A stretch of DNA of 20,000 nt, taken from IMG/VR virus record IMGVR_UViG_3300013772_000004; one strand, 5' to 3'. Position 1 is the stretch's first letter. The number at the start of each line of letters is the position of its first letter. The position numbers and the translations under genes were made by a program. This document shows positions 1 through 18,424 of the stretch, in pieces. The stretch comes from an uncultured virus (IMG/VR IMGVR_UViG_3300013772_000004) (Duplodnaviria > Heunggongvirae > Uroviricota > Caudoviricetes). The notes under the pieces are model-generated. The model worked only from the letters and a program-made list of their open reading frames with translations. It did no database searches and was not told the DNA's origin.

Positions 1-131
1 CGCGCGCGCAGCTTCGCGACGCCACGCGCGGCGCACGCCAGCCCCACGCCGAGCAGCACAGCCGCATGGTACACCACACCACACAACGCCAACGCCAACG
101 CCAACGCGCTACTACGCGCTAGGGCGCCCAC
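1..131 (-). CDS. Small hydrophobic hypothetical protein, runs off the left edge (partial)
   Basis: GTG at 131 overlaps the TAG of the upstream gene (TAGTG); an in-frame ATG at 143 is an alternative start. Hand translation MGALARSSALALALALCGVVYHAAVLLGVGLACAARGVAKLRA... is open to the edge. Not in the ORF track. Confidence 0.4.
   Translation of the reverse strand, partial: MGALARSSALALALALCGVVYHAAVLLGVGLACAARGVAKLRA
84..107. repeat. Tandem repeat (CAACGC)x4
   Basis: Four perfect copies; encodes (Ala-Leu)x4 in the minus-strand ORF. Confidence 0.9.
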
Positions 132-307
132 TAGCGCCACCATCGGCCCATGCAGTCGCACCCTGCATACCCCATATAACAGGGCTCGTGCGTACGCACG
201 TGTGGCAAGGCATAGTCTAGCCAACCGTCGAGCCTACGTGCCGGTACTGCACACGCCAGCCTATCGGCCGCCATGCGTGCCAGTGCTGCTACCGTAGCAG
301 CCGACAC
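131..307 (-). CDS. Small Cys-containing hypothetical protein (58 aa)
   Basis: 3' part of ORF 131..418. GTG at 307 overlaps the TAG of the 307..528 gene (TAGTG), suggesting translational coupling. Confidence 0.5.
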   Translation of the reverse strand: MSAATVAALARMAADRLACAVPARRLDGWLDYALPHVRTHEPCYMGYAGCDCMGRWWR

Positions 308-528
308 TAGCGCACCCCATCGTGCGATGCGACCATGGCCCACGTGGTACCAGTGCCGATGCTGTAGACAGCGCGCGCAATGTGGCATGCGGTAATGTCG
401 CGGTTCACCAGCGCGCACATTTCGGCGACACTGGTACCGCAGTACTGCGCTGGCAGTGTGGCAGTAGCGGCCTTGACAGGCTTACCACCGATACGACGAC
501 CGACCATGGTGCGAAGCGATTGAAGCAT
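307..528 (-). CDS. Hypothetical protein (73 aa), first gene of the leftward unit
   Basis: The ATG sits the same distance from the left sigma54-like motif as ATG 808 does from the right one. Confidence 0.6.
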   Translation of the reverse strand: MLQSLRTMVGRRIGGKPVKAATATLPAQYCGTSVAEMCALVNRDITACHIARAVYSIGTGTTWAMVASHDGVR

Positions 529-540
529 GCATGACCATAG

Positions 541-556
541 TGCTAGTGGCGTGCCA
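541..556 (-). promoter_or_regulatory. Sigma54 (RpoN) -24/-12 promoter, leftward
   Basis: Minus strand reads TGGCACGCCACTAGCA against the consensus TGGCACG-N4-TTGCW. GG-N10-GC spacing is exact, with one mismatch. Confidence 0.75.
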
Positions 557-571
557 CGGTATGGTACACGG

Positions 572-606
572 TAGAACGGCCTGCCAGGCCGTTACAGGCC
601 GTTCTA
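572..606. repeat. Inverted repeat with duplicated right arm
   Basis: TAGAACGGCCTG (572-583) is complementary to CAGGCCGTTCTA (595-606) and partly to CAGGCCGTT (585-593). Confidence 0.8.
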
Positions 607-618
607 GGCTGTTATGCC

Positions 619-733
619 ATGGGGGTCCAGGCCCCACCCTGGGGTGCAGACCCCCACCCTATAAAGCAGTGTGGTATTAGGGGGTTATACCAGGGTATGC
701 GGGGTTAGCTATGGGGGGCCAGACCCCACCCTA
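619..733. repeat. Three ~22-bp imperfect direct repeats, candidate upstream activator sites
   Basis: ATGGGGGTCCAGGCCCCACCCT (619-640), TGGGGTGCAGACCCCCACCCTA (640-661), ATGGGGGGCCAGACCCCACCCTA (711-733). Each has a GGGG..CCCC dyad. Confidence 0.75.
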
Positions 734-779
734 CCACGCTATGCCTATCAGGTTACGCTAGGTTACCTGCTTAATACCG

Positions 780-795
780 TGGCACGGCACTAGCA
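780..795 (+). promoter_or_regulatory. Sigma54 (RpoN) -24/-12 promoter, rightward
   Basis: TGGCACGGCACTAGCA with exact GG-N10-GC spacing. It lies within a 26-bp element (774-799) matching 537-562 on the other strand at 24/26 positions. Confidence 0.75.
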
Positions 796-807
796 TTATA
801 CCCAAAC

Positions 808-1200
808 ATGCCTACTAACAACCTGTCCACCCTGCCCACGTCTACCTCTAACACATCGAAGGCCCTTGCCAAGGGCGGTACCGCTGCTAAGGCCCTTGCG
901 GCGCCTACCACGGCAGTCAAGGCCGATAGCAGCACCACAGCTGTGCACGCCGAGTTCAGCTACCCAGCTAAGGCTACCACGTCTAAGACCACGTGGGTGC
1001 CAAAGGCTGGTACGGTGCCAGGTAACCTCGTTATTGCGCTTAATGCAGGCCCGATTACCATGGTGCAGGCTATGGCGCTTATTGCGCCAGGTGCTGCTAA
1101 GGTTGGCCATCAACACAAGGTCGCTGCACTATGCAAATGGTTGGCCGCTAACCGTAGTTATGGTACACAATACCAAGGTGGTATGCTTAGCAAGGTCTAA
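808..1200 (+). CDS. Basic Ala/Thr/Lys-rich hypothetical protein (130 aa), possibly DNA-binding
   Basis: ATG-TAA ORF directly after the promoter and followed by a hairpin; 11 Lys, 1 Arg, 1 Asp, 1 Glu. Confidence 0.75.
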   Translation: MPTNNLSTLPTSTSNTSKALAKGGTAAKALAAPTTAVKADSSTTAVHAEFSYPAKATTSKTTWVPKAGTVPGNLVIALNAGPITMVQAMALIAPGAAKVGHQHKVAALCKWLAANRSYGTQYQGGMLSKV

Positions 1201-1214
1201 GCCATAGTAGTAAG

Positions 1215-1258
1215 GGGTTAGCAGCCCCCATACCAGGCTGCTAACCGGCTGCTAACCC
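1215..1258 (+). terminator. Stem-loop after the 808-1200 gene, possible terminator or processing site
   Basis: GGTTAGCAGCC (1216-1226) pairs with either tandem copy of GGCTGCTAACC (1236-1246, 1247-1257). No adjacent U-tract. Confidence 0.45.
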
Positions 1259-1451
1259 ATCGCTACCCCACGGGTACCCCACAGTTACCCCAGCGGGTTT
1301 TTGTGTGGTCTCGGCGCAGCCTCACCCAGGACCCGCAAAAATTTTTCCCATAAAACAGAGCTCCTCCCCAAGCACTGATTACTTGCCCACCCCTGAGCCC
1401 TCCACCTTGCATCCCCGCCCATCAACCATGAAATCCTAGAACCTAACCACC

Positions 1452-1781
1452 ATGTCAAGAATCAGCCTCCAGGTCACCAGCATCCTCAACGAGTTCGACC
1501 CCAAGGATCCGACCAAGATCGTGCGGCGAACCCTCGTCACCGCCCTCCACTCCCCCGTCAACGAGCTGAACCTCGGCGAGATCACCGAGGAGCGGGCTAA
1601 GGCGATCACGCCCGGGATGGAAATCTCCTGCGAGCTCACCCCCGACTTCACCAACATCGACGCGGGTCAGACGGATCAGCAGAAGGCGACCGAGGCGGCG
1701 AACAAGGTGCTCGACGAGGAGAAGGAGACGCTCGCGAAGGCGACGGTCGCCCCTCGCGCCAAGTCCCCCACCAGGCACTAG
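1452..1781 (+). CDS. Hypothetical protein (109 aa)
   Basis: ATG start, GC3-rich codon usage like the structural genes; first gene of the long + strand run. Confidence 0.75.
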   Translation: MSRISLQVTSILNEFDPKDPTKIVRRTLVTALHSPVNELNLGEITEERAKAITPGMEISCELTPDFTNIDAGQTDQQKATEAANKVLDEEKETLAKATVAPRAKSPTRH

Positions 1782-1785
1782 GACC

Positions 1786-1983
1786 ATGGAGGACAGAGAG
1801 CACATTCTCCAGTTCTTCGCGTTCGAGCACCTACCTCCTGGGCTACAGGAGGTCTCGAGACCGTTTCACGACCTCGCGAACGGTACGATCATGAAACAGC
1901 CGCGCAACCCGGAGCGCACGGTCGCACTCCGCAAGCTGCTCGAGTCGAAGGACGCGGCGGTTCGCGCCGCACTGGCCAAGTGA
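1786..1983 (+). CDS. Conserved small helical phage protein (65 aa), possibly Acb2/Tad1-like hairpin
   Basis: Pattern FF.F.HLP..LQ.VS.PF..LA......P..PERT.ALRKLLE.KD.AVRA, recognised as a widespread phage family. Fold link is inference. Confidence 0.85.
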   Translation: MEDREHILQFFAFEHLPPGLQEVSRPFHDLANGTIMKQPRNPERTVALRKLLESKDAAVRAALAK

Positions 1984-1987
1984 CACC

Positions 1988-2233
1988 ATGAAGCGAGTCA
2001 GGATCTCCAGCGACGGCGTCAGTACCCAGGTGCGAGTCGGATCGCAGCTGATGCACGACGTTCAGGAGGTCCTGATTCGCCTTCGCCCCTCCGGGCCAGC
2101 GGTCGTCACCCTCACGATCCTGGCCGAGCACGTCGAGGTCGACGGACAGGCCGTCCTGAACTTCGGCGGTGGCGGCACTGAGGAGACAGTCAACCTGCGT
2201 GCCGGCAAGTCCAAGAGGCCCGGAACCATATGA
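1988..2233 (+). CDS. Hypothetical protein (81 aa)
   Basis: Tightly packed ORF; stop overlaps the next start (ATGA). Confidence 0.75.
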   Translation: MKRVRISSDGVSTQVRVGSQLMHDVQEVLIRLRPSGPAVVTLTILAEHVEVDGQAVLNFGGGGTEETVNLRAGKSKRPGTI

Positions 2234-2733
2234 GCCAACTCGACAGGACGGTCACCTGCTCTCACGTGTGTCCTCGTCGAGACATGGTGTCCGGCATGCC
2301 CCTCTGCGACACCTGGAACGTCGACGAGACCACCGGTCTTCGACACTGTTCCTGGTGCGGCTCGATCCATCCCGACCAGTTCATGCATCTGGTGCGAACG
2401 CACTGCGTACTCACGCCGACGGACAAGGAGTACAAGGTCTACGTCGACGAGACCGTCGCGCGGATCGTCACCGGCGACACGAACGAGATCGTCACTCCTC
2501 CTCACCAGCGCAAGTTCTACTTCCAGCATCTCGGCGTAGCCGACCGCGTGGCGTTCAAGGAACTCCACAACGCCGGTCAGCTCTCCATCGGCTATCCGGG
2601 CAACTTCTACGTCGTGCCGTACTTCATGGTGCCTCCGAGATCTGCACGACCATCGGAAGTGCAGAGCTCGTCGGTCCAGAACGAGGTCGCCGATCCACTC
2701 ACGGGGCTCCTGAGAGGCGAGACCGAGTCGTGA
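2230..2733 (+). CDS. Hypothetical protein with Cys/His motifs (167 aa), possibly zinc-binding
   Basis: CPRR...HCSWCGSIHP...PTDKEYK...KFYFQHL...GYPGNFY; ATGA and GTGA overlaps at its ends. Confidence 0.8.
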   Translation: MSQLDRTVTCSHVCPRRDMVSGMPLCDTWNVDETTGLRHCSWCGSIHPDQFMHLVRTHCVLTPTDKEYKVYVDETVARIVTGDTNEIVTPPHQRKFYFQHLGVADRVAFKELHNAGQLSIGYPGNFYVVPYFMVPPRSARPSEVQSSSVQNEVADPLTGLLRGETES

Positions 2734-3638
2734 GCGACCAAGTCAAGCCGCCCGAGCCTGCGCTCGCCTCGATCATGCGTAAGCGGCCGGGGGACGAGCC
2801 GCCGGAGCGCGACGAGCGTCTCATGAGACGGATACGAAGTGACCGTATCATGAGTACCCCGGCGCAGGCGTACCGAGAGGAGACCGCTCAGAGCGATCTC
2901 CTCAGGCTCCGAGACGCACCGACCCCTCCTCCGGGCTATCGCTACACCATGGACGGTCGGCTCATCCCGATCGAGGGTAGCGAGCTGCCGATCACGGACG
3001 TCGAGGCACAAGAGCTCTTCTGCGGTGTCATCGAGATCACGGGGAGTATGCGGGCTGCCTGCGACGCCCTGGGTATCCGCAGCGTGGCGCGCGTGAAGGG
3101 CTACCTCATGCGGGACGTCGAGTTCTCCGAGGCGGTCGAGGCGGCGAGCCAGCGGCACAAGGAGTCTCTATACGCTCACGCCCACAAGCGGGCCACGGTC
3201 GGAGTCGAGACGCCCATCTTCGACAAGACGGGGCAGCTCGTGGGGTACGAGACGAAGTACAGCGACTCTCTTCTCACGCTTCTGCTGAAGCGCCACATTC
3301 CGGAGTTCCGCGAGGCGAGTAAGTCTGGAACGACGGTCACGGTCAACAACACCGACAACAGCCAGAACGTGCAGATCGACGTCAAGAGTATGACGCGCGC
3401 ACAGAGAGACGCCATGAGACTCATCCTGACGGATAAGAGCGAGCTTCCGGAGGAGGAGACGGTACCGGGTACCGTCTCACCCGCAGCTCAGGAACTCTCA
3501 CGAGTTCTGGAGGTCATCGACGTGGACTCGACGGTCATGGTTCCGCTGCCTCCGGGCGTGAACACGCCGGAGGGCACGGTCAGCAACGAGGTGCCTCTGT
3601 CGATCGACACGATCGTCGACGATCCGGTGGACTCCTGA
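2730..3638 (+). CDS. terS: Terminase small subunit (302 aa)
   Basis: Start reassigned to GTG 2730 (GTGA overlap) within ORF 2169..3638. Core GSMRAACDALG...D.EF...KRA..G...PIF..G.LVG....YSD.LL.LLLK...PEFR resembles TerS; upstream of TerL. Confidence 0.8.
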   Translation: MSDQVKPPEPALASIMRKRPGDEPPERDERLMRRIRSDRIMSTPAQAYREETAQSDLLRLRDAPTPPPGYRYTMDGRLIPIEGSELPITDVEAQELFCGVIEITGSMRAACDALGIRSVARVKGYLMRDVEFSEAVEAASQRHKESLYAHAHKRATVGVETPIFDKTGQLVGYETKYSDSLLTLLLKRHIPEFREASKSGTTVTVNNTDNSQNVQIDVKSMTRAQRDAMRLILTDKSELPEEETVPGTVSPAAQELSRVLEVIDVDSTVMVPLPPGVNTPEGTVSNEVPLSIDTIVDDPVDS

Positions 3639-3997
3639 TGTCGGGCGGCGGCTGTCCGCACTCTACGAACGCCTCGGCCAGTCCGCTGACGTGCTCCCGA
3701 TGCATCCTGCTGGCGCGCAACGCGGTCGGCGACGACCCGGACGCGGTCACGCCTCAGCTGGTGTACGTCCGGCAGGTCGTGGTGATCGACGGCTGGATCC
3801 ACGTGGACGGGGTAAACGTCGGGCGGCACGCGGACGGGCTGGCTCGCATGGAGGAGGCGGAGAGGCAGTACGCAGGCGGCACGTCGCATCTACAGTTCTC
3901 CGGCAAGAAGCGGTGTATACGGTGTCTGAGACTTGGGCACGACGTGCCCGACTGCAAGGAGGAGCGCCGTGTCGATATCGAACCGAAACCTGAGTGA
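3638..3997 (+). CDS. Hypothetical protein with CCHC zinc knuckle (119 aa)
   Basis: TGATG overlap with terS; CIRCLRLGHDVPDC fits C-x2-C-x4-H-x4-C; a second Cys cluster is N-terminal. Confidence 0.7.
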   Translation: MSGGGCPHSTNASASPLTCSRCILLARNAVGDDPDAVTPQLVYVRQVVVIDGWIHVDGVNVGRHADGLARMEEAERQYAGGTSHLQFSGKKRCIRCLRLGHDVPDCKEERRVDIEPKPE

Positions 3998-4154
3998 GCA
4001 GCGAGTGCGACGGATCTGGCCGAGCGCCGAGCCTCCGGGCGTCGACGAGTCACGGGTGAGAGCCTGCGACGAGTACGGGAACTGCGACGCGCTGAACCCG
4101 CCGCCCGCGGAGACCGAGTCGCGGAGCGGTCCGGGATCCGGCATCAAGCCGTGA
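3990..4154 (+). CDS. Possible small hypothetical protein (~50 aa), start uncertain
   Basis: 3' part of ORF 3933..4154 fills the gap and its stop overlaps the terL start (GTGA). Start could be CTG 3990 or GTG 4005. Confidence 0.35.
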   Translation: MSEQRVRRIWPSAEPPGVDESRVRACDEYGNCDALNPPPAETESRSGPGSGIKP

Positions 4155-5824
4155 CCGTCTCCGAGCCTCCTCTCGACGAGTGGTCCGGCCGCTACGAGCC
4201 GAACCAGGTTCGCGGCTACACGATGGAGGACATCGAGCTGATGCGGCGACGGCCGGATCAGACGTTGTTCGAGCTGGACGTGGCCGACGCCGAGGAGAAG
4301 TTGGTCGACTTCGTGAAGTTCCAGTGGTCTACGGTTGAGCCCGCGCGAAAGTACGTAGACGGGTGGGCCATGCAGGCCATCATGGAGCACCTGGAAGGCG
4401 TCGCCGACGGGCAGATCACGCGCCTTCTCATGAACGTGCCTCCGGGCTTCATCAAGAGCCTGGCCAGCGACGTCTTCTTCCCCGCCTGGATCTGGGGTCC
4501 TCGCAACCGCCCGGAGGCTCGCTTTGTCTGTGCGTCGTACTCGCATGACCTCACTATCCGCGACAACGTTCGCTGTCGCAACGTCATCGGCGACGAGCGG
4601 TATCAGCGGGCGTGGGGCGATCGCTTCGCCATCGACCAGCGGCAGGACGCCAAGCAGAAGTTCGCTAACGACAAGCGCGGGTGGAAGCTCGCCACGTCGG
4701 TTCACGGGCTCGGTACTGGCGAGCGCGGCGACTTCGTCATCGTCGACGACCCACACAACGTTCTCGAGGCGGAGTCGGACGCCAAGCGGAACAGCGCGCT
4801 CCAGTGGTTCACGGAGGTCATGCCGACTCGCGTGAACGACGCGGCGACTGCCGTCTTCATCGTGATCATGCAGCGCGTCCACGAGGACGACGTGGCTGGG
4901 CTCATCTACGAGAAGGAGCTCGGCTACACGCAGCTGATCATCCCGCAGCACTACGACAAGGACCATCCCCTCTACGACAAGAAGATGATGTGGAGCGGGT
5001 GGCGCGGCGACCCACGCGGCCTCGTCGAGGATCCCAAGTCCGACCCGAACTACCACGTCGGCGCGGTCGCGGAGGGCATCATCGCGTTCCCGGAGCGCTA
5101 CCCCAAGAAGGAGGTAGAGGCGCTCGAGAAGGTGATGATGTCGTGGGGCGGCACCTACTCGATCGCCGGTCAGCAGGAGCAGCGCCCGGAGCCGCGCGGC
5201 GGTGGCATGGTCTCGATCGACTGGTTCGAGGTCGTGGAGGCTGGTCCACCGCGAGACAAGTACGCGCTGCGATGCCGAGGATGGGACTTCGCGTCGACCA
5301 AGGACGGCAACGGAGCAGGGTCGGCGAGCGTGCGCATGGCCCAGACGTTCAACGCCGAGGAGGAGAATAGCGACATCTGGATTGAGGACGTCTGGTGGGA
5401 TCGCGTGTCTCCGGGCGGTCTGTACGATCACATCCGGGCTACCGTGGAGCACGACGGCTACGACGTCTTCCAGTCTCTGCCCCAGGACCCCGGCCAGGCC
5501 GGCGTCTATCAGGTGGACGACATGCTGGAGCTGTTTGCGGGGCACGACTTCGAGTTCTCAAGCGAGTCGGGCGACAAGGTCGTCCGTTTCCGTCCCTTTG
5601 CCGCGCAGGCGGAGGTTCGGAACAAGGTGGCGCGAAGAATTCGCGTAGTCAAGGGCGACTGGAACGACATGTTCTTCGCGCAGGTCTCCAAGTTTCCTGT
5701 CGGACGACTGAAAGATATCCCGGACGGCTGTTCCAGGGCCTATGGTGGACTGGTTAGGCGCGCGGGAGCCTCCTTCAGCGTCGGTGGATCTGTACTTCTT
5801 CAGCGTCAGGGCGCTACGTCCTAG
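4151..5824 (+). CDS. terL: Terminase large subunit (557 aa)
   Basis: Walker A-like LLMNVPPGFIKS, Walker B FVIVDDPHN, IVIMQRVHEDD, and nuclease motifs RGWDFAST, QDPGQAG, KDIPDG. Confidence 0.95.
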   Translation: MTVSEPPLDEWSGRYEPNQVRGYTMEDIELMRRRPDQTLFELDVADAEEKLVDFVKFQWSTVEPARKYVDGWAMQAIMEHLEGVADGQITRLLMNVPPGFIKSLASDVFFPAWIWGPRNRPEARFVCASYSHDLTIRDNVRCRNVIGDERYQRAWGDRFAIDQRQDAKQKFANDKRGWKLATSVHGLGTGERGDFVIVDDPHNVLEAESDAKRNSALQWFTEVMPTRVNDAATAVFIVIMQRVHEDDVAGLIYEKELGYTQLIIPQHYDKDHPLYDKKMMWSGWRGDPRGLVEDPKSDPNYHVGAVAEGIIAFPERYPKKEVEALEKVMMSWGGTYSIAGQQEQRPEPRGGGMVSIDWFEVVEAGPPRDKYALRCRGWDFASTKDGNGAGSASVRMAQTFNAEEENSDIWIEDVWWDRVSPGGLYDHIRATVEHDGYDVFQSLPQDPGQAGVYQVDDMLELFAGHDFEFSSESGDKVVRFRPFAAQAEVRNKVARRIRVVKGDWNDMFFAQVSKFPVGRLKDIPDGCSRAYGGLVRRAGASFSVGGSVLLQRQGATS

Positions 5825-5827
5825 GAT

Positions 5828-7618
5828 ATGGGTCTTTTCTCGCGTATGGGTGCGTCACTCGGCCGAGTATTCGGCGGGTCGACGAGAGACGTGAGAAACG
5901 CCCTGAAGAACGACGCCGTGATCGACGGCAAGTGGGTCGAGACTCGTCAGGGCATCGGTGGAGCTCAGGTCGTCGGCAGCTTTCTCGCCTCGGCGGAACG
6001 AAATCCCCGGTTGGCGTCCGTCAGGCAGCGAGTCGAGGCGTATCAGGACGTCTCGTACAACGTGTCGATCGTCGCGACCTCGCTGCGCTACGTCAGCGCG
6101 CTGATCACGGCGACCAACTGGAACGTCCACGCTCCCAAGGGTAAGAATATCCTGACCGACAAGGGCGTTCCAACCGGCGACAAGTCGGAGAAGCCGGTGC
6201 TTCCTGGCACGGGCGCGACACCCGCTCCATCGGCGAAGCAGTTCGCGGGACGGGACCCCTCCGGCCCCGCGGATCCCGAGGAGGACACGGATCGCTCCGA
6301 CAACGAGGACTACGTCAACCTAACTCCGGCCGAGGTGAAGCTCGCCGCCGAGTACGCTGAGGCAATCCGCCAGAACCTCCGCCGCATGGCGGTACCGTGG
6401 TTCAAGGTCGTCCGACAGGCCGCGACCTTCAAGTGGTTCGGACACAGCGTGCAGGAGATGATCGCCCAGCGGATGGACGACATCATGCCCGGTTTCATCG
6501 GCATCGGCACCATCGAGAATCGTCCGATCGAGACGCTTCAGCAGTGGTTTCTCGATCAGGACTCCGGCGCGGTTCAGGGATGGATCCAGCGCGGCATTCT
6601 CGACGGCACCGAGCACAACCTCGATCGCGAGCGCTGCGTCTACATCGTCGACGATACGCTCACGTCGCAGCCTGACGGCGTCGGCCTTCTTCGCCACGTC
6701 ATCCAGCTCTGTGATCAGCTGAAGCGGCTCGAGCAGATCGAGCTCTGGGCCTACGAGACTGACCTGCGTGGCGTACCGATCGGCTACGCTCCGGTCGCGC
6801 TGCTGATGGAGCAGGTTCGCCAGGGTCGCATGACCAAGGCGCAGATGGAGCTCGCTCTCCAGGGCATTCAGGACTTCATCGTTCACCACGTGGTGAACCC
6901 GGAGCTGGGCCTGCTGCTCGACTCCAGTCCCTACACGAGCAGCGACAACGCTCGCACTCCAGTCGGTAACACGCGCCAGTGGGGCATGGAGCTCGTCAAG
7001 GGTTCCGGCACCGGCCTCGCCGAGATCCACGCCGCGATCGAGCGTAAGAATCACGAGATCGCTCGCGCGCTTCACACCGAGCAGTTCATGCTCGGTGCCG
7101 GCGGAAAGGGCTCGCTGGCCCTCTCGGAGGACAAGAGCCGCTCGATGATCGAGCTCATCAACTCGATCATCATGGAGGTCGCCTGGTCTCTCGAGCACGA
7201 CATGATTCGGCGTATCTTCATTCTCAACAACTGGGACATGAAGCTGATGCCGCGTCTTCTGCCCGACGCGGTGGCTCTCCGGTCGGTGAGTATCATCACG
7301 GACGCGCTCAGCAAGCTCGCCCTCGCGGGTGCCACTATCGATCGCAACGATCCGATCATCAACCAGATTCGCTCGATGCTCAAGCTAGTCGAGCAGCCGT
7401 TCGTGACTCCCGAGATGATTGCCGCCTCGAAGCCACCGAACGCCGGAGGCACTCCGGGCCAGAAGGGTCCTACTGCACCGAATCTTACGAAGGACAACTC
7501 ACTCGGCGCCGAACTCGAACGAGTGTTCTCTGCTCGACTTTCTACTCCTGGTGATGTTACTCCACTAGAGATGATGAAGCTGTTCACTGACACCGTCAAC
7601 GCCCGGAGGGTCTCGTGA
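5828..7618 (+). CDS. Portal protein, probably DUF935/Mu gp29-like (596 aa)
   Basis: Directly after terL, suitable size, motifs FGHSVQE, PDGVGLLRHV, DLRGVPIG, GSLALS. Confidence 0.88.
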   Translation: MGLFSRMGASLGRVFGGSTRDVRNALKNDAVIDGKWVETRQGIGGAQVVGSFLASAERNPRLASVRQRVEAYQDVSYNVSIVATSLRYVSALITATNWNVHAPKGKNILTDKGVPTGDKSEKPVLPGTGATPAPSAKQFAGRDPSGPADPEEDTDRSDNEDYVNLTPAEVKLAAEYAEAIRQNLRRMAVPWFKVVRQAATFKWFGHSVQEMIAQRMDDIMPGFIGIGTIENRPIETLQQWFLDQDSGAVQGWIQRGILDGTEHNLDRERCVYIVDDTLTSQPDGVGLLRHVIQLCDQLKRLEQIELWAYETDLRGVPIGYAPVALLMEQVRQGRMTKAQMELALQGIQDFIVHHVVNPELGLLLDSSPYTSSDNARTPVGNTRQWGMELVKGSGTGLAEIHAAIERKNHEIARALHTEQFMLGAGGKGSLALSEDKSRSMIELINSIIMEVAWSLEHDMIRRIFILNNWDMKLMPRLLPDAVALRSVSIITDALSKLALAGATIDRNDPIINQIRSMLKLVEQPFVTPEMIAASKPPNAGGTPGQKGPTAPNLTKDNSLGAELERVFSARLSTPGDVTPLEMMKLFTDTVNARRVS

Positions 7619-8145
7619 GTACCAGTCAGGTCTACATCGGACAGTACGCCTACGACGTCTACGGGAATACGGCCGACGCGGACCAGTATTGGTTCCCGCT
7701 GAACAACATTCTCGAGTCCGGTACGTCATGGTCGCTCGCGTCAGCCGACGCTCGGGCGAGCTCGCTGGTGGCGGCGACGCGCATCATCGACAGTCTCGGG
7801 TATCCCACGCTCTACGGAACGTTCAGCCTGCGAAACGCCATCGCCGACTTCGATACGATCTGCTACGAGATCGCCGGTCAGGTTCTACTCCAGCCCGCCG
7901 TCTTCACGCAACTGTCGTCCGGCTCGAACATCAGGCGAGTCGACGCGGGCGGCGGTGTCGTCGTCGAGTTCTTCAACGAGACTCTCACGACGACCAGTCG
8001 CTTCTCGCCGCTGGTCGATGCACTGCTGGCCAAGTACCTCGGCAACGACGTGGTCTCCACCAGCCAGTCCTGGGCGTCCGGTACGGGCGACAGCCCGGAC
8101 GCGGGCGGTAACAGCTACAACTACAGCCTGACCAGGCCGACCTGA
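7615..8145 (+). CDS. Head-tail adaptor, DnaT-like family (176 aa)
   Basis: Y....DADQY...W......RA.SL..ATR.ID and C-terminal IRRV.AG...VEF...VDALL..YL pattern. Confidence 0.75.
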   Translation: MSTSQVYIGQYAYDVYGNTADADQYWFPLNNILESGTSWSLASADARASSLVAATRIIDSLGYPTLYGTFSLRNAIADFDTICYEIAGQVLLQPAVFTQLSSGSNIRRVDAGGGVVVEFFNETLTTTSRFSPLVDALLAKYLGNDVVSTSQSWASGTGDSPDAGGNSYNYSLTRPT

Positions 8146-8540
8146 TGGGCAAGAAGCTCTTCGGCATCGACGTTCAGAAGCTGGTGGCCGACGCATTCAA
8201 GCCAAAGGACACGCAGAAGTTCATTCTTCGCAAGAAGTCCTACGCCGGCTACGACCCGGCCAATCCAACCTCTGGGCGAGTCGAGACGCAGGTGGACTAC
8301 CCCTGCAACGGTATGGTCACGTCCTATAGTCGTTTCATCTTCGCTCAGGACGATCTGATCGAGGACGGCGACATGCGTGCGGTGGTCGTCGGTCGACCTC
8401 TTGCTCTCCAGGGTGTGGAGCCTACGAAGGACGATCTGTTCGTCGACGACGAGGGAACTGTGTATACGATCGTCAAGTCTGATACCACCGGACTGCGAGC
8501 CACCTACATTCTTCAGATCAGAGGAATCACGCAGCGGTGA
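8145..8540 (+). CDS. Head closure / head-tail joining protein (131 aa)
   Basis: YDPANP..G......Y.C.G....Y........I..GD...P...D......Y.IV...ATY.LQ.R pattern; TGATG overlap with the adaptor. Confidence 0.7.
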   Translation: MGKKLFGIDVQKLVADAFKPKDTQKFILRKKSYAGYDPANPTSGRVETQVDYPCNGMVTSYSRFIFAQDDLIEDGDMRAVVVGRPLALQGVEPTKDDLFVDDEGTVYTIVKSDTTGLRATYILQIRGITQR

Positions 8541-8604
8541 GTGGTGAGTTGATGCACTCCGAGGAACTGGTACTCGTGACTCTTCAAGGCTATCTCGGGT
8601 TCTC

Positions 8605-10107
8605 ATGAAGCCTGCTCCCATCACGGTGGACGCGAAGCTGCGCAGCGAGGCAATCTCGTCGGCATCGCTCTCCATCGGTCGCGGACTCGGTCTCGACACG
8701 ATGAAGATGTTCTCCGGAGGAAAGCCCGTCGACGAGGTTCTCCGTGACGAGCTCCTGGCCAAGTGTGCGACCGGTCAGTACGTGGAGCTCGAGGTTCCGA
8801 TGCTCGCCTACGAGCAGCAGCCCGACTCCGTCAACAAGAACTACGTTCGGGTTCGCGACGGCGGCATGATGGCGTTCGGCCAGTCGGCCAAGGGTAACCC
8901 TTTCCTCCGCGACCACGCCCAGAACGACTCGACTGCCGTCGGCGGTCGCATTACGAAGTCGCAGACCGTCAAGAACGGCGAGGGCGACTACAGCATCAAC
9001 CAGACTGCGATGCTGACGGATCCCGCCATGGTCGCTCGCGCTCTTCGCGGCCTCATGTCGACGGTGTCCATCAGCTGGCGTTCTACGGACGGTCAGGTCG
9101 ACTGCTCCGCGTGTGGCACGCCGGTTCTCACCGACTGCTACCACTTCCCCGGCGACAAGCTTCGCCAGGTCGAGAACGACGGCAAGAAGTCGTTCGTTCG
9201 CGATCGTAAGAATTCCACGCACACCGCGCAGTGGATCTATAACAACGTCGAGCACGTCGAGACGAGCGAGGTTCCGGTTCCGGCCGTGAAGAACGCCAAG
9301 ATCGATGCGATCCGTAACTCTGTTCTGATGTCCGCTGGTTTGGCGGACGACAACGAACCCGATCCTGTCCCCGCACTCGCTCCGATCGAGCCTCCCATCA
9401 CGGAGAAAAAGAACATGCTGACCGAAGAACAGATCAAGTCCCTCCAGCTCTCGCTCGATCGTGCCAACAAGGTCATCGAGCTCAACGACACCGAGAAGGC
9501 GTACTTCCAGCGTCTCGGCGAGTCGGAGGGCGATCGCTTCCTCGCGAAGTCCTCGGCCGATCGCGGCAAGATGTTCGAGGTCGTCTACACGGCCAAGAAC
9601 GGAACCGTCTTCACCGCCGCGGACGACAAGCGTCTCGTCGAGATGGCGAAGCAGGGCGACGCCGACAAGGAGGGCTTCGCCGTGGCGCTCGCCGCCGAGA
9701 AGGCAAAGGGCCTGCTGAGCCGCACCGAGGCGACTCTCAGCCACCTCAGCGGTCCGATCGAGGCGCGCGTCGCGCTTCTCACCGCCGTGGAGAGCATCGA
9801 GAACGCCGAGTACCGCACGGCGGCGCTCGCGGCGCTGTCGGAGCAGGACGCGAAGGCCTCCAAGGCGTTCGTTCGTCAGGGCTCTGGCGCCACTGTCAAG
9901 GGTACCGAGAAGGCTCCCGTCGTCCTCAAGTCGGTCACCGGCGCGAACTCGGAGACCAAGCTGGAGTTCGAGGCCGAGCTCCAGGCGATGGCCGACGAGC
10001 TGGTCGCCAATGGCTCGCAGAAGGATCCGGAGATGGCCTACGTGGTCGCTCTCCAGTCCGACAAGGGCCGCGAGATCTACTCCAAGCTCCAGCACGTCTC
10101 GAAGTAG
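8605..10107 (+). CDS. Prohead protease-scaffold fusion (500 aa)
   Basis: Candidate catalytic His (FLRDH) and Ser (STVSISW), ETSEVPVPA motif, Pro-rich linker, then a helical charged domain; upstream of the capsid genes. Confidence 0.8.
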   Translation: MKPAPITVDAKLRSEAISSASLSIGRGLGLDTMKMFSGGKPVDEVLRDELLAKCATGQYVELEVPMLAYEQQPDSVNKNYVRVRDGGMMAFGQSAKGNPFLRDHAQNDSTAVGGRITKSQTVKNGEGDYSINQTAMLTDPAMVARALRGLMSTVSISWRSTDGQVDCSACGTPVLTDCYHFPGDKLRQVENDGKKSFVRDRKNSTHTAQWIYNNVEHVETSEVPVPAVKNAKIDAIRNSVLMSAGLADDNEPDPVPALAPIEPPITEKKNMLTEEQIKSLQLSLDRANKVIELNDTEKAYFQRLGESEGDRFLAKSSADRGKMFEVVYTAKNGTVFTAADDKRLVEMAKQGDADKEGFAVALAAEKAKGLLSRTEATLSHLSGPIEARVALLTAVESIENAEYRTAALAALSEQDAKASKAFVRQGSGATVKGTEKAPVVLKSVTGANSETKLEFEAELQAMADELVANGSQKDPEMAYVVALQSDKGREIYSKLQHVSK

Positions 10108-10164
10108 TCGCCAGTCGGCCACTAGAACACCCCAAATCACACTCTCTCGACAGGAGACTCTACG

Positions 10165-10554
10165 ATGCCGATCACTGGCGCCTACTCTAGCCCCGCATTC
10201 ACCAACACCCTCAACGTCAAGGCGGCCGTGACGGCCGTTCGCTACACGGCGATCGACGTCGAAGTCACCACTGGCAGCGCGATCCTCACGACCCTCGCCG
10301 GCGCGATGATCGGGGTCGCCCAGGACAACACCGACGGACCGCACGGCGTTCCGTACCAGCACACCGGCATCACGCCGATGGTGACTGGAGCGGGTGGTGT
10401 CGCGGCCGGTGACTTCTTCCAGGTCGACGCGGCGGGCGGTGCGGTCCGTGCGATCGCCAGCGGCAAGCCGCACGGTCGCGTCCTCACCGGCGCGATCGCA
10501 GGCAAGCTCTGCACCGTCCAGCTTCACATCCAGAACGTCGCTCCGGCGACCTGA
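10165..10554 (+). CDS. Capsid cement/decoration protein, DUF2190-like (129 aa)
   Basis: IGVAQ, G.T....G.GGVAAGD..QVDAAG.AV, G.VL.GA.AG motifs; AGGAG RBS; between scaffold and capsid. Confidence 0.8.
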   Translation: MPITGAYSSPAFTNTLNVKAAVTAVRYTAIDVEVTTGSAILTTLAGAMIGVAQDNTDGPHGVPYQHTGITPMVTGAGGVAAGDFFQVDAAGGAVRAIASGKPHGRVLTGAIAGKLCTVQLHIQNVAPAT

Positions 10555-10616
10555 TCCTTCGGGCTTCTCACCACTCAACCTTTTCTCACTAGTCACACAA
10601 CAGGAGCCTCCAGGCC

Positions 10617-11615
10617 ATGGCGACGACCCCTACCCTCTCAGACGTTCACGTAAACCGGCCGCTCACCAAGATGGCGGCCCTCTTCATGACGGACCTGCAG
10701 GACTTCCAGGCTGACTACCTGGCGCCCATCATGCCGTCTGACAAGCGTTCCAACACGTACTACAAGCTGGACAAGAACTACTGGTTCTCGGACATCATGC
10801 AGAAGCGTGGCCCGGGAGTCGCTGCGGTCCGGAAGGGCTGGGGTACTCTGATGGACTCCTTCCTCATCGACGTCTGGGCCGTCGGCAAGGACATCGACGA
10901 TCAGACCCGCGCCAATGCGGACGACGAGCTCCAGCTCGAGGCGACTTCGATGAAGTTCGTCGCTCGCGCCGAGCGCCTGAACCGCGAGAAGCGGTTCTAC
11001 GACGCGGTCTGGAACGCGGCGGCGTGGAGCAACTCGCTGACGGGCAACACTGCTCTGTCCGCGATCTCTGCGGGTACGGCCGGCACCATCAACCAGTGGA
11101 ACGACGCCAACTCGACGCCGATCAACGACGTTCAGTCGATCCAGACCGTCTCCCGACTCACGACGGGTATGGCGTTCACCGATCTCGCGATCGGTCAGGA
11201 AGTCTTCAACGCTCTCAAGAGCAACACCCAGATCCTCGATCGCATCACCGGTGGTTCCACCTCGGTGAATCCCGCGAACGTGACCAAGGAGCTCATCTCG
11301 AATCTCCTCGGCATCAACTTGGTCGTCCTGTCTGCAGTCGAGAACACTGCTGGTCTCGGCAATGCCATGACTGGTCAGTACATCTTCGGCAAGCAGGGCC
11401 TCTTCATGCACCGCGACAACTCGCCGGGCATGGAGACGCCGACGGCCATTCGTACGATCACCTGGCAGCAGTACGCCGGCAACAAGAACGGCACGCGGAT
11501 CATGAAGTGGCGTGACGAGTCGATTCACTCCGACATCATCGAGATGGAGTCGGCGTACGTCCACAAGATCGTGGCTCCGGATCTCGGCCTCTTCGTCAAC
11601 GGTCTGGTCGCCTAG
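10617..11615 (+). CDS. Major capsid protein (332 aa)
   Basis: N-terminal PT.SDVHVNRPLT...F.AD..AP and C-terminal KIVAPDLGLF; AGGAG RBS; position. Confidence 0.9.
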   Translation: MATTPTLSDVHVNRPLTKMAALFMTDLQDFQADYLAPIMPSDKRSNTYYKLDKNYWFSDIMQKRGPGVAAVRKGWGTLMDSFLIDVWAVGKDIDDQTRANADDELQLEATSMKFVARAERLNREKRFYDAVWNAAAWSNSLTGNTALSAISAGTAGTINQWNDANSTPINDVQSIQTVSRLTTGMAFTDLAIGQEVFNALKSNTQILDRITGGSTSVNPANVTKELISNLLGINLVVLSAVENTAGLGNAMTGQYIFGKQGLFMHRDNSPGMETPTAIRTITWQQYAGNKNGTRIMKWRDESIHSDIIEMESAYVHKIVAPDLGLFVNGLVA

Positions 11616-11621
11616 GTCTAG

Positions 11622-11945
11622 ATGGCTCGCGAGGGTTCATACCTTCCTCCTCATCGTCGAGGTCGAATCTTCGACGAGTCGAAGACTCTCTACGCTCGTC
11701 AGCGACTGCAGAGTCGAGACATCGTCTGGGAGATTGGGGAGGAAGTCGACTGGCGAGCAGAGGGCATCAGCGTCGCTACCGTTCAGCAGTGGTTTCGCAT
11801 CCGATACGTCAGCCACTTCAAGAATGGTGACACCTCGCCGGAGGCCAGGGAATTCTACGCCAGCATTCCTCACTACGTTCAGGCGGCTCCGCCAGTCAAG
11901 TCGACTCTGAAGCCGACGAAGCCAGCTGCGAAGTCTCGCTGGTAG
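11622..11945 (+). CDS. Hypothetical virion-associated protein (107 aa)
   Basis: ORF packed between the capsid and neck genes; basic, Pro-rich C-terminus. Confidence 0.7.
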   Translation: MAREGSYLPPHRRGRIFDESKTLYARQRLQSRDIVWEIGEEVDWRAEGISVATVQQWFRIRYVSHFKNGDTSPEAREFYASIPHYVQAAPPVKSTLKPTKPAAKSRW

Positions 11946-11960
11946 GCCCGGGAGGGTCTC

Positions 11961-12377
11961 GTGCCCTACGAAATCACCACAAACGATCCGGGAGTAGTAG
12001 GCGCGGCGGTCGAGAAGGCCGTCAGCGCCTTGTTCATTACCACGATGACTCGTGCGTGGGAGAACCTGATCACGGCTCCCTCTCACGGTGGAACTCCAGT
12101 CGACACTGGATTCGCGAGTGCCAGCTGGATTCTGTCTATCAGCGAGCCGAGCGACGAGGTGGGCGGCTCTAAGGAGAACGTGGATCTCGGTCCCTCGGAT
12201 CGCGGCGTGACAGCACTGATGAACTACAAGATCACCTACGGCGCGGTCTTTCTCGTGAATAACACCGACTACATCGTCGAGCTCAACTACGGTTCTAGTC
12301 CGCAGGCGCGGACCGGCTTCGTGGAGCGAGCCTATGAAGAGGCCATCGAGTTCGGCCAGAGGCAGAACTATCTGTGA
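11961..12377 (+). CDS. Neck/tail completion protein, HK97 gp10-like (138 aa)
   Basis: TPVDTG.A.ASW and NN..YI.ELN.GSS.QA..GFV motifs; GGAGG RBS before GTG. Confidence 0.85.
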   Translation: MPYEITTNDPGVVGAAVEKAVSALFITTMTRAWENLITAPSHGGTPVDTGFASASWILSISEPSDEVGGSKENVDLGPSDRGVTALMNYKITYGAVFLVNNTDYIVELNYGSSPQARTGFVERAYEEAIEFGQRQNYL

Positions 12378-12802
12378 GCGTCACTCTCACAGAGGCTCAG
12401 GCAAAGTCTGCGCTCGACACGTACTTCATGTCGAACTGGATGACGGCGTATCCTGCCGTACTGTTCGATCTCGAGAACGTACAGACGACGTCACCAGCTC
12501 CGGGCAAGCCGTGGGTACGGTGCCGCCTACAGCTCGAGAACAGCGTCCAGGAGACACTAGGTGCTCCAGGGGCGCGACAGTACCGCCGCGACGCGGCGGT
12601 GTGGTGCTGGTGCTTCGTCGCCGCCAACAGCGGCACGACACTCCTGAATGGAATGATCGACACTCTCAGGACTATGTTCGAGGGAGTCACCTTCAGCGGT
12701 ATCTCGCCACGCGGAGCAGTTCGTACTGTCACGACCGGAGCTAATGGTCAGTGGTACGAAGTGGCCGTGATCGCTCCCGTAATGTACACTCAGACACGCT
12801 AA
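12374..12802 (+). CDS. Tail terminator protein (142 aa)
   Basis: EN......P..PWVR.......S.Q.TLG..G.R.Y.R pattern; directly before the tail tube gene. Confidence 0.8.
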   Translation: MSVTLTEAQAKSALDTYFMSNWMTAYPAVLFDLENVQTTSPAPGKPWVRCRLQLENSVQETLGAPGARQYRRDAAVWCWCFVAANSGTTLLNGMIDTLRTMFEGVTFSGISPRGAVRTVTTGANGQWYEVAVIAPVMYTQTR

Positions 12803-12817
12803 ACAGGAGAACTCGCC

Positions 12818-14320
12818 ATGGGCCGCTCACTTACCAACAATCTCTCACTCTCGGTCGCTGTCGAGAGCGCGCTCGGCATCCAGCCTACCAGTGGTTGGAA
12901 AATCGTCGAGCCTACCACCATCGGCAAGTTCGGCCCGTCGCTGACGAAGCTGACACGTACCCCGATCTCTAAGAATCGTCAGCGCCGCAAGGGCGCGCTG
13001 ACCGATCTCAACTCGAGCGTCGAGTTCGAGGCTGACATCACCTACAATCACCTCATGATGTTCGCCGAGGGCCTGCTCTTCGCCACGGCGCGCGGCGGCA
13101 CGGTCTACGACGTCAGCGGTGTGACGGCGACCGGCTTCACGGTCGCGGCTGGCGGCGCCATCGCGGCGGACACGCTGGTCGTCGTTCGTGGCTGCAAGAA
13201 TGCCGTGAACAACGGCCTCAAGACGGTGACGGCGGGATCGACTGGTACCGAGATTCACGCGGCGGGCCTGGTGGCAGAAGTCTTCGCCGCGAACCAGGGT
13301 GTGACTCTCGAGATCGCCGGCTTCGTCGGCGCAGCTGGTGATCTCAAGATCGACGCGACTGGTCATCTCACCTCGACGGCCACGAACTTCACGACCGGCG
13401 TTCCTGGTATGATCCAGCGGGGCCAGTTCATCCACGTCGGCGACGTCGCTGGCGGAGCGAACAGCTTCTTCACGGCGGCGGACCGTGGTCTCGCCCGGGT
13501 GCAGGCGATCGCCGCGAATCTTCTCACGCTCGACAAGACGAGCGCGACGTTCGTGGTCGACGACGGTACGAGCACCGGTTCTCTTGGTACCGCGAAGTCC
13601 ATCTACATCCTCTTCGGCAGCTACGTGCGGAACGTGTCGGTCGACGATCCAGACTACCTGGAGCGCACCTATCAGTTCGAGCTCGCGTACGAGAATCTCG
13701 GTCTGACTCCCGGCACCGACGAATACGAGTACGCGGAGGGCAACTTCGCGAACCAGATGGACTTCAGCTTCCAGACCGCGTCGAAGGGAACGATGAAGTG
13801 TACCTTCATCGGTACTGACACCTCTCCTCCCGCACTCACTCGTGCGACCGGTGGGTCTATTGCGAAGCAACCGACGGCGACCGAGATGTACAACACGAGC
13901 TCGGACTTCGTCCGCCTTCGTGTCGAGAACGCCGACCTCACCGGCCTGACGACGGACTTCAAGAACGTCACGCTGATGCTCAAGAACAATGTCACCCCCG
14001 AGAAGGTCGTCGGCACTCTCGGCGGCAAGTACATGAACGCTGGTCTGTTCGAGGTGGAGCTCGACGGGAGCTGTCTCTTCACCAGCGACCTGGTTCTGGC
14101 GGCGATGCGCAACAACGCGACGCTCTCGATGGAGTTCTGCGTGCGCAACGGCGACGGCGGGTTCTGCTTCGACATTCCCTCGATGACCGTCGAGGGCGGC
14201 GACAAGAACTTCCCGGTCAACCAGACCATCGACATCACGCTCAAGGCGATGGCGTTCCAGGACGCCAACCTCGGCACCTCGCTCTCGCTGTCGACGTTCC
14301 CGTACCTGCCTGCCGCTTAG
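12818..14320 (+). CDS. Major tail tube protein (500 aa)
   Basis: N-terminal E..LG..P...W...EP.....FG......R.PI...RQR.KG..TDL pattern of Phage_tube_2-type siphovirus tubes; AGGAG RBS. Confidence 0.88.
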   Translation: MGRSLTNNLSLSVAVESALGIQPTSGWKIVEPTTIGKFGPSLTKLTRTPISKNRQRRKGALTDLNSSVEFEADITYNHLMMFAEGLLFATARGGTVYDVSGVTATGFTVAAGGAIAADTLVVVRGCKNAVNNGLKTVTAGSTGTEIHAAGLVAEVFAANQGVTLEIAGFVGAAGDLKIDATGHLTSTATNFTTGVPGMIQRGQFIHVGDVAGGANSFFTAADRGLARVQAIAANLLTLDKTSATFVVDDGTSTGSLGTAKSIYILFGSYVRNVSVDDPDYLERTYQFELAYENLGLTPGTDEYEYAEGNFANQMDFSFQTASKGTMKCTFIGTDTSPPALTRATGGSIAKQPTATEMYNTSSDFVRLRVENADLTGLTTDFKNVTLMLKNNVTPEKVVGTLGGKYMNAGLFEVELDGSCLFTSDLVLAAMRNNATLSMEFCVRNGDGGFCFDIPSMTVEGGDKNFPVNQTIDITLKAMAFQDANLGTSLSLSTFPYLPAA

Positions 14321-14347
14321 TCCCCACCTCCTGAGCGACGGCCTTCA

Positions 14348-14378
14348 CACCCTCCGGGCACGCCATACCCGGAGGGTG
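14348..14378 (+). terminator. 11-bp stem-loop after the tail tube gene (partial terminator or mRNA stabiliser)
   Basis: CACCCTCCGGG - 9 nt loop - CCCGGAGGGTG; no U-tract. Confidence 0.55.
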
Positions 14379-14427
14379 AGTCGTATCTACTCATCGTCTA
14401 TTGCAGTCCCTACCCTGGACATGCCAC

Positions 14428-14865
14428 ATGACTACTATGGCAAGTTCTTTCAGTCATCTGAAGCAGGGTAAGCTCTCGAGCGTTACCTACACTCTGTGGG
14501 ACGTTCAGGGCGAACCGAAGCTCGAAGTCAAGTTCGCCGGCGAGACCAACAAGCCCTACTTCAACGAGGTGTTGAAGCGAGCCGAGCACATTCAGCGCGC
14601 CAAGCGCAAGATCGACGCAGGACTCATCGCCGAGAACCGTACTCGCGATCGTCAGTCGTTCCCCAAGTACGTCATCGTCGGATGGAAAGACGTCAAGGAC
14701 GCCGACGGCAAGGAGGTCTCATTCACCACCGAGGACTGCGAGTCTTTCCTCAACGCACTCGACGACGATCAATTCGACGGCATTCGCGAGTTCGCCAAGG
14801 ACGCCTCGAACTTTCGCGAGTTCGTCGACAAGGGCAACACCCCGGGAAACTCGCAGAGCGTCTGA
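14428..14865 (+). CDS. Tail assembly chaperone (gpG-like)
   Basis: Between tube and tape measure genes; AG..NK.Y...IVGWKDV.D.DG.EV.FT.E pattern; start ATG 14428 or 14437. Confidence 0.85.
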   Translation: MTTMASSFSHLKQGKLSSVTYTLWDVQGEPKLEVKFAGETNKPYFNEVLKRAEHIQRAKRKIDAGLIAENRTRDRQSFPKYVIVGWKDVKDADGKEVSFTTEDCESFLNALDDDQFDGIREFAKDASNFREFVDKGNTPGNSQSV

Positions 14866-15239
14866 GCTGGGAGCTTAGGCTCGGACGCGACGGCTACACG
14901 ATCGAGGCGGGAGAGATCAAGGGTAGAGCTCCACCGGACTGGTACACGGACGTAGTAGAGGAATTAGAGACAGATCACTTCTACATGCGTGCCTTCTGGG
15001 ATCTTCATACGGAGAGAACTTTTGGTATGTCACTGGGACCGATACCGTACGGAAAGATCAAGCAGTACGGTATCGACGAGGAGCTAGAGGACGGCGTTCT
15101 ACTCATGTTCATCGATACGATCAGAGCGATGGACATCGCGTACCTCAAGGACAGTGACGAGGAACAGAAGAAAAAGTCTCCTCCTCGTGCCCCAATGAGT
15201 AAGGACGACAAGACCGACGTTCTCACACGAAGGAGCTGA
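14844..15239 (+). CDS. Tail chaperone -1 frameshift extension (gpGT-like)
   Basis: Slippery G GGA AAC at 14844-14850 is in phase. The -1 frame reads GKLAERLSWEL...AFWDLHTER.FGM..GPIPY..I..Y to TGA 15239. Confidence 0.85.
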   Translation, partial: GKLAERLSWELRLGRDGYTIEAGEIKGRAPPDWYTDVVEELETDHFYMRAFWDLHTERTFGMSLGPIPYGKIKQYGIDEELEDGVLLMFIDTIRAMDIAYLKDSDEEQKKKSPPRAPMSKDDKTDVLTRRS

Positions 15240-15242
15240 CTA

Positions 15243-18422: not shown

Positions 18423-18424
18423 TC

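Follow-up and report, generated by a model that had tools for sequence, protein, structure and literature searches.

Why do the first 1.3 kb of a phage sequence carry so few GA and TC dinucleotides, when the DNA directly beside them is rich in both? The question is raised by a stretch of 20,000 nucleotides (nt) from an uncultured virus of the Caudoviricetes (IMG/VR IMGVR_UViG_3300013772_000004), here called the window, in which positions 1-1320 (the island) precede an ordinary structural gene arm. We showed that the depletion is selective and acts at the dinucleotide level on both strands, in non-coding DNA, in synonymous codons and in amino acids. The island appears to be a terminal control or early module of native DNA that was stripped of GA/TC. 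Our leading reading, held tentatively, is that it is thereby exempt from a GA-specific modification made by the phage itself.

The recount gave 54 GA+TC in 1-1320, exactly the figure that an earlier note on this DNA had put at about 54, against 157 expected from base composition (observed/expected 0.34). GA occurred 26 times (expected 78.8; 0.33) and TC 28 times (expected 78.2; 0.36), while positions 1321-20000 held 1568 GA and 1664 TC against 1181.6 and 1025.8 expected, respectively. In 300-nt windows slid across the whole 20 kb, the GA+TC ratio was 0.27-0.56 within 1-1350, and windows starting past 1400 never fell below 1.09 (mean 1.47, maximum 1.89). The depletion thus survives correction for base composition. 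The G+C content is nearly equal in the two parts (0.60 in the island, 0.62 in the remainder), therefore base composition does not explain it. Among the 10 strand-symmetric dinucleotide classes, GA/TC was the top outlier in 600-nt windows (robust z -10.3), accompanied at the same place by TA (+7.3), CC/GG (+7.1) and CG (-5.6). All 8 trinucleotide classes containing GA/TC were lowered, from GGA/TCC at 0.04 to GAC/GTC at 0.37 of the remainder's frequency. As the note had described, the start is free of GATC (0 copies in 1-1500), and GATC and TCGA are dense downstream (9.4/kb and 11.8/kb, against 0 and 2 copies in the island). The right border is sharp and lies at about 1310-1330. The left border is outside the window, since the island reaches position 1 and public contigs extend 112 nt further.

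The other compositional oddities of the island follow from this single loss. Native segments were taken from the window's remainder, and random single bases in them were changed until their GA/TC count equalled that of the island. The simulated and observed shifts were +1.03 and +1.22 for TA, +0.44 and 0.41 for GC, +0.28 and 0.38 for CA, +0.19 and 0.23 for CC, and -0.28 and -0.41 for CG, respectively (r=0.91). One constraint, the removal of GA/TC from native-like sequence, reproduces the entire odd composition, and the foreign origin that the note had offered as an alternative is therefore unneeded.

The purge reaches into the two small open reading frames (ORFs) of the island. For ORF 808-1200, 16 GA+TC were counted against 40.9±4.2 for the identical protein written in the phage's codon usage, and none of 2000 simulations was as low. 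For ORF 307-528 the count was 17 against 25.2±3.0, with 13 of 2000 simulations as low. The same codon simulation showed no deficit in two control genes. On the coding strand of both ORFs, GA was removed more fully than TC. The G+C content of ORF 808-1200 was flat over the three codon positions (0.54/0.56/0.57), while third positions (GC3) of the structural genes reached 0.75-0.92. Its protein was confirmed to hold a single Asp and a single Glu, its three Ile codons are all ATT and its stop is TAA. This acidic content of 2/130 compares with 12.5% in the phage's other proteins. Among 1.84 billion representatives, searched exhaustively and without a profile, only two relatives turned up, at 55% (E 9e-25) and 42% identity (E 2e-5), with 4/142 and 0/117 Asp+Glu. 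Since both relatives share it, the scarcity of acidic residues is old and maintained, and by sequence comparison ORF 808-1200 appears to be a real gene of a small conserved family poor in acidic residues. The purge in the ORFs acts at the DNA level and is old, maintained and incomplete. Neither island ORF matched Pfam or PHROG, the ESM Atlas gave only leads under 0.9 for ORF 808-1200, and no locus of its family was found in viral contigs.

Taken with the two small genes, the promoter-like motifs and the hairpin at its end make the island look like an early or control unit (Table 1). The pattern TGGCAC-N5-TWGC has two exact matches in the window against 0.07 expected, and two or more occurred in 0 of 200 shuffles. 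We take it to be the -24/-12 pattern of sigma-54 promoters, with TAGC as the -12 element here. The sigma-54 consensus is TGGCACG-N4-TTGCW, and its -24 GG and -12 GC elements are present at the fixed spacing in both copies. The last C of each motif lies 14 nt ahead of an ATG, so that nearly leaderless messages would result. The predicted start is merely 2 nt before each ATG, a difference from known sigma-54 promoters, and no Shine-Dalgarno sequence precedes the ATG of either ORF. The palindromic pattern TGGGG-N7-CCCCA has 3 matches against 0.01 expected, all between the arms of an inverted repeat and 53-157 bp upstream of either sigma-54-like motif. These distances fit enhancer sites, and as candidates for such sites the three palindromes would be a further likeness to enhancer-dependent sigma-54 promoters. 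A scan for sigma-70-type promoters gave no match, and a terminator scan gave two terminator-like matches, both outside the island. Rfam returned only asX1 (27.9 bits against a gathering score of 70), and the tRNA scan found none. A third -24/-12 copy with one mismatch lies antisense within ORF 808-1200 (1006-1020, minus strand).

The island is joined to the arm in nature and probably sits at a genome end. The stretch was present in 4 public soil runs (X1-X4), which were assembled separately and all belong to one study, possibly the window's own source; no RNA run was among the sequencing runs listed for it. In all 4 runs contigs crossed the border at 1320, with 0 differences and without any loose end there: X1 and X2 each did so in one contig (8332 and 17444 nt, respectively), X3 and X4 in the pieces 1157-1565 and 1100-2894, respectively. 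Because contigs of four separate runs span the border, the join is genuine, and the chimeric join near 1320-1450 that could have undone the earlier proposal is excluded. Contigs crossing the left end of the window stopped exactly 112 nt beyond position 1 in X1, X2 and X4, and 45 nt beyond it in X3. The k-mer depth of island pieces was 79.3, 81.1 and 78.3 in X3 and 38.8-49.4 in X4, against 29.3 and 11.7 for the next arm piece, respectively. Short island contigs (1-1186) thus had 2.8-3.7 times the depth of the adjoining arm (1536-5000), although contig k-mer depth is coarse, is not readable as copy number and makes the step a hint only. The two bridging pieces are intermediate in depth, which by calculation places the step at about 1270-1305, inside unbranched contigs and at the compositional border. 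The step hints at repetition of the island (for which a terminal repeat would predict twofold depth), at better recovery of the island than of the remainder, or at both. Possible causes are a terminal repeat, transposase libraries that recover unmodified DNA better, which would make the step a hint of a modified base in the remainder, and extra subgenomic copies. With regard to a terminal repeat, the island/arm ratio exceeded 2 and the contigs ended 112 nt to the left in three of four runs, on coarse depth and with one presumed genome end covered.

What could read GA/TC? Something in the infected cell probably reads or marks the dinucleotide itself, and the relatives of the phage suggest a candidate. 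Downstream of the island lies a siphovirus arm with small and large terminase, portal, head, tail tube, chaperones and tape measure. The top cultured matches of the large terminase were Shewanella phage S0112 (MK675901.1, 40%) and Rhizobium phage RHph_X3_2 (39.5%). Both carry a block of DNA polymerase, clamp, DpdA, FolE, QueD, QueC and QueE. With S0112 the window further has portal, tail tube, chaperone and tape measure in common, at 35-40% identity; synteny with it is broad, and the structural module overall shows 25-40%.

S0112 contains exactly one GA/TC-poor island, of 1.6 kb, at 20.8-22.5 kb. Its lowest 300-nt window reaches 0.14 where the genome averages 0.93, and the island contains a small gene together with a hairpin and direct repeats. 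It differs from the window's island in being internal in the deposited record and in its gene (21003-21344), which belongs to another family. That gene is related to the island gene of the survey genome G003 (919-1380) with an hhalign probability of 69% (E 4.5e-5). The G003/S0112 family has 82 members, the homologues of the G003 gene being nearly free of Asp and Glu, and shares a conserved C-terminal GINPATAATQY-like motif. A kinship of ORF 808-1200 with either island gene was rejected, since neither BLASTP nor hhalign gave a match.

A close known counterpart is the Pseudomonas phage iggy (Iggyvirus, Queuovirinae), in which DpdA exchanges G exclusively at GA sites, 97% of them being modified, according to passages of PMC10484667. 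The same passages describe dPreQ0 and direct terminal repeats of 1091 bp. In our analysis, the strongest GA/TC-poor zone of iggy straddled the record ends (strong at 59930-60628, mild at 1-1000). As in the window, it lies at the genome ends between oppositely read gene arms and beside small genes, with the same side shifts (CC/GG and TA up, CG down). The differences are that the large terminase of iggy is not detectably related to that of the window, that its zone is richer in A+T, and that modification is measured in iggy and presumed for the window's phage. The island-minus-rest shift profiles of the window, iggy and S0112 correlated at 0.79-0.91, and at 0.63-0.85 without the GA term. The available passages of PMC10484667 make no mention of the GA/TC-poor zone, and its text supplement, as far as available, gives no repeat coordinates.

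The survey of such islands covered 29 DpdA-positive genomes, 7 cultured and 22 complete or nearly complete viral contigs (97-100% by CheckV), the latter picked by length and completeness from 80 DpdA-positive contigs. The Pfam TGT model (PF01702) detected 0 of 4 known phage DpdA carriers, therefore a DpdA alignment was used for the searches, and the resulting model detected 24 of 24. The call required a 600-nt window with less than 0.4 times the median of its genome and a z under -4. By this measure, 5 genomes had GA/TC islands, 2 AC/GT, 4 AT and 2 CG islands, and the six other classes gave 0; among the DpdA-negative large-terminase relatives, 0 of 5 were flagged in any dinucleotide class. These numbers agree with a link between DpdA and islands and are no proof of it. 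The island lies at a contig or record end in the window, G003 (300-1300 of 74241), G018 and iggy, and is internal in S0112, G023 and G014. Two DpdA-positive genomes, G006 (60200-61820 and 1-300, likewise at the contig end) and G014 (48300-50000), have islands of about 2 kb purged of AC/GT and not of GA/TC. Their DpdA proteins form one well-supported clade, shared with the island-less G002, and the AC/GT purge may reflect a different DpdA target motif.

Taken together, the best candidate for the reader of GA/TC is a GA-specific guanine exchange made by the phage itself, as in iggy, a reading by analogy that we favour without calling it probable. The window's 1-1320 together with at least 112 nt to the left would form the terminal module of a tailed phage of about 73 kb, whose head and tail genes are kin to those of DpdA-carrying siphoviruses and which would carry dpdA as well. 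Like these relatives, the phage would swap G for a 7-deazaguanine at GA throughout its genome. Selection would have removed GA/TC from both strands of the module, changing its non-coding sequence and synonymous codons and costing the proteins Asp and Glu, and the island, lacking the target step, would stay ordinary DNA. On it would stand two back-to-back sigma-54-type promoters, separated by three palindromic sites and each followed after 14 nt by a small gene, and a hairpin would close the right end. Such plain DNA would allow host proteins, namely the RNA polymerase holoenzyme and an enhancer-binding protein, and/or the terminal-repeat machinery to read it unhindered. The island may also be the first region transcribed, kept plain for reading by the host RNA polymerase, as the earlier note had proposed. 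The modification-exempt early region remains plausible: the selective depletion, the control-unit anatomy, the DpdA/preQ0 genes of the nearest relatives and the counterpart in iggy speak for it, and the predicted modification genes are the part that did not appear, as no dpdA, folE or que gene was found in the 20-kb window.

Besides this absence, several points weigh against exemption from a self-made modification. The modification is deduced from relatives whose large terminases are only 40% identical to that of the window, and the five that come next by this protein (31-34%) are DpdA-negative. The difference between 5 of 29 and 0 of 5 GA/TC islands is statistically non-significant. The DpdA-positive RHph_X3_2, Skure (Seuratvirus), JenP2 (Nonagvirus), NP1 and Vibrio 033B have no GA/TC island. 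The carriers are scattered on the DpdA tree, with 5 changes for 5 carriers, so that the DpdA clade was rejected as a predictor. The purge is incomplete, as 54 GA/TC are left and ORF 808-1200 retains 16 where a minimum of 2 is possible. The two sigma-54-like matches are not independent because they are arms of one inverted repeat, and the -12 element TTGC of the consensus reads TAGC in them. A hindrance of RNA polymerase by 7-deazaguanine is presumed. Finally, the DNA of iggy was sequenced by a transposase kit with no trouble reported in the available passages. Genome-wide avoidance of non-GA palindromes, an indirect sign of protection at GA, gave no clear signal in the window's remainder or in iggy.

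The strongest alternative, which we consider unlikely, is that the island evades a nuclease of host or phage as unprotected DNA, either as the first DNA to enter or as a fill-in copy of a terminal repeat that escapes post-replicative modification, with the remainder protected at GA. Its terminal position, the contig ends 112 nt to the left in three of four runs, a depth step that fits a terminal repeat, and the GA/TC-poor zone of iggy where, from the passages on it, the terminal repeats lie, are all in its favour. So is the density of GATC and TCGA in the remainder against their near absence from the island. A precedent is the first-step-transfer DNA of phage T5, which is not known to carry EcoRI sites. 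Like the island, it is a terminal early module without words that are found elsewhere in the genome. The loss does not focus on restriction sites, however, since GGA/TCC and GAG/CTC (0.10) fall further than CGA/TCG (0.33) and GAT/ATC (0.27), which build TCGA and GATC, and the 2 TCGA copies of the island match the 2.5 predicted from its own trinucleotide content. Six-base palindromes were neither enriched nor depleted (33 against a dinucleotide expectation of 31.8±5.4), and non-GA four-base palindromes were denser than in the remainder (CTAG 6.1 against 1.0/kb, GTAC 8.3 against 4.3/kb). The avoidance of restriction sites that the note had raised is therefore not seen in its general form, since non-GA palindromes are at or above expectation. 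An enrichment of palindromes was rejected as a cause, none being found beyond the dinucleotide expectation. The T5 region differs further in that the window loses one dinucleotide in every context, retains plentiful non-GA restriction-type palindromes and has an island of about 1.4 kb against 8-10 kb. The general lack of restriction sites of a T5-like region is not seen in the island, and no homologue of T5 pre-early genes was found, the island ORFs having no Pfam or PHROG match.

Another phage modification could be the reader, for example a thymidine hypermodification derived from 5-hydroxymethyl-dU and placed at TC, which we regard as improbable. Such modification depends on a two-letter context, which is TG or TC in phages M6, ViI and PhiW-14 in the available part of PMC6449724, and mainly TG in that of PMC13458397, so that the likeness to the island lies in TC. 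As TG is also used there while TG/CA is enriched in the island (1.27 and 1.34 observed/expected), modification of thymine at TC fits less well. In addition, the nearest relatives carry deazaguanine genes, and no thymine-pathway gene was noted in the window or in the annotation tables of S0112 and RHph_X3_2, where no specific search was made.

About equally improbable is that the dinucleotide has no reader at the DNA level, and that a local mutational process, a constraint on RNA, or the needs of two small proteins and binding sites shaped the composition. The shortness of the island and the fuller removal of GA than of TC from the coding strand of both ORFs would fit this. The roughly equal depletion of GA and TC overall, which includes non-coding DNA, does not, and neither does the like shift in unrelated phages, with its correlation kept when the GA term is left out. 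Two mutational routes were rejected: a simple GA-to-TA conversion, since the context of the extra TA differs from that of the remainder's GA, and TC-to-TT deamination, since AA/TT is without enrichment. A foreign insert, a mobile element or an assembly chimera is very improbable: the flat codon-position G+C, the missing family matches and the higher depth would suit it, but contigs of the four runs, from their single study, bridge the border, the purge of native sequence yields the signature, no transposase-sized ORF is present and the depth step falls inside unbranched contigs.

The main reading of a self-exempting phage leads to a broader idea, possible and rather doubtful at present. Some DNA-modifying phages may erase the target dinucleotide of their own enzyme from an early module in a terminal repeat, leaving a landing pad of plain DNA, on which sigma-54 RNA polymerase would act here together with an enhancer protein. 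Sequence alone would then show the specificity of the enzyme by the dinucleotide that is missing, GA in the window, iggy, S0112, G003, G018 and G023 and AC/GT in G006 and G014. Our literature searches found no published description of such GA/TC-poor islands. If the purge does mark DNA kept free of the phage's own modification, one could predict the target motif of a modifying enzyme from nothing more than the genome sequence, the purge would point to the module that acts first in infection, and hypermodified DNA would have a functional cost, with some protein-DNA transactions needing plain DNA. It is testable in the cultured phages iggy and S0112, which have the same island.

Table 1. Features of the island and of the start of the adjoining arm (positions in the window).
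Feature	Position	Strand	Basis or remark
GA/TC-purged island	1-1320	none	Dinucleotide counts; public contigs carry it on for at least 112 nt beyond position 1
Tandem repeat (CAACGC)x4	84-107	+	Repeat scan
ORF, 73 aa, partly purged of GA/TC, no family match	307-528	-	ORF list, codon simulation
38-nt inverted repeat, left arm, over the leftward promoter-like motif and the start codon of ORF 307-528	525-562		82% complementary, 211-nt spacer
Sigma-54-like -24/-12 motif TGGCACGCCACTAGC	542-556	-	Last C 14 nt before ATG at 528
Two adjacent palindromic sites TGGGG-N7-CCCCA, candidate enhancer/regulator sites	620-636 and 640-656		Motif count
Third TGGGG-N7-CCCCA site	712-728		Motif count
38-nt inverted repeat, right arm, over the rightward promoter-like motif and the ATG at 808	774-811		Repeat scan
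Sigma-54-like -24/-12 motif TGGCACGGCACTAGC	780-794	+	Last C 14 nt before ATG at 808
ORF, 130 aa, Ala/Thr/Lys-rich, 1 Asp and 1 Glu	808-1200	+	ORF list, homologue search, codon simulation
Hairpin with perfect 11-bp stem, after ORF 808-1200	1216-1246	+	Minimum free energy z -2.28
Small stem plus T-run, past the hairpin	about 1285-1303	+	Sequence inspection
Start of the ordinary GA/TC-rich arm: four small genes, small terminase (2733-3638), large terminase (4151-5824)	1452-5824	+	Family matches

Searches for closer relatives at the nucleotide level gave little. Megablast against phages returned no match, and distant blastn returned only matches of about 80 nt, in the gene at 1786-1983. An exact 44-nt pattern had no match in viral contigs. 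Large-terminase relatives in viral and metagenome contigs were short and ended before the island, and the large terminases of DpdA-positive viral contigs of 73 and 74 kb were unrelated to that of the window. The gene at 1786-1983 encodes a 65-aa protein (phrog_1761), and no other part of the first 4 kb gave nucleotide matches. Its matches (72-83% identity over 66-170 nt) were found in distant phages of Myxococcus, Mesorhizobium, Gordonia and Microcystis, as for a widely travelled small gene. Further downstream, two overlapping chaperone-like ORFs (14401-14865 and 14496-15239) lie upstream of the tape measure gene, in the layout that is usual for a tail assembly chaperone pair made via programmed frameshift.

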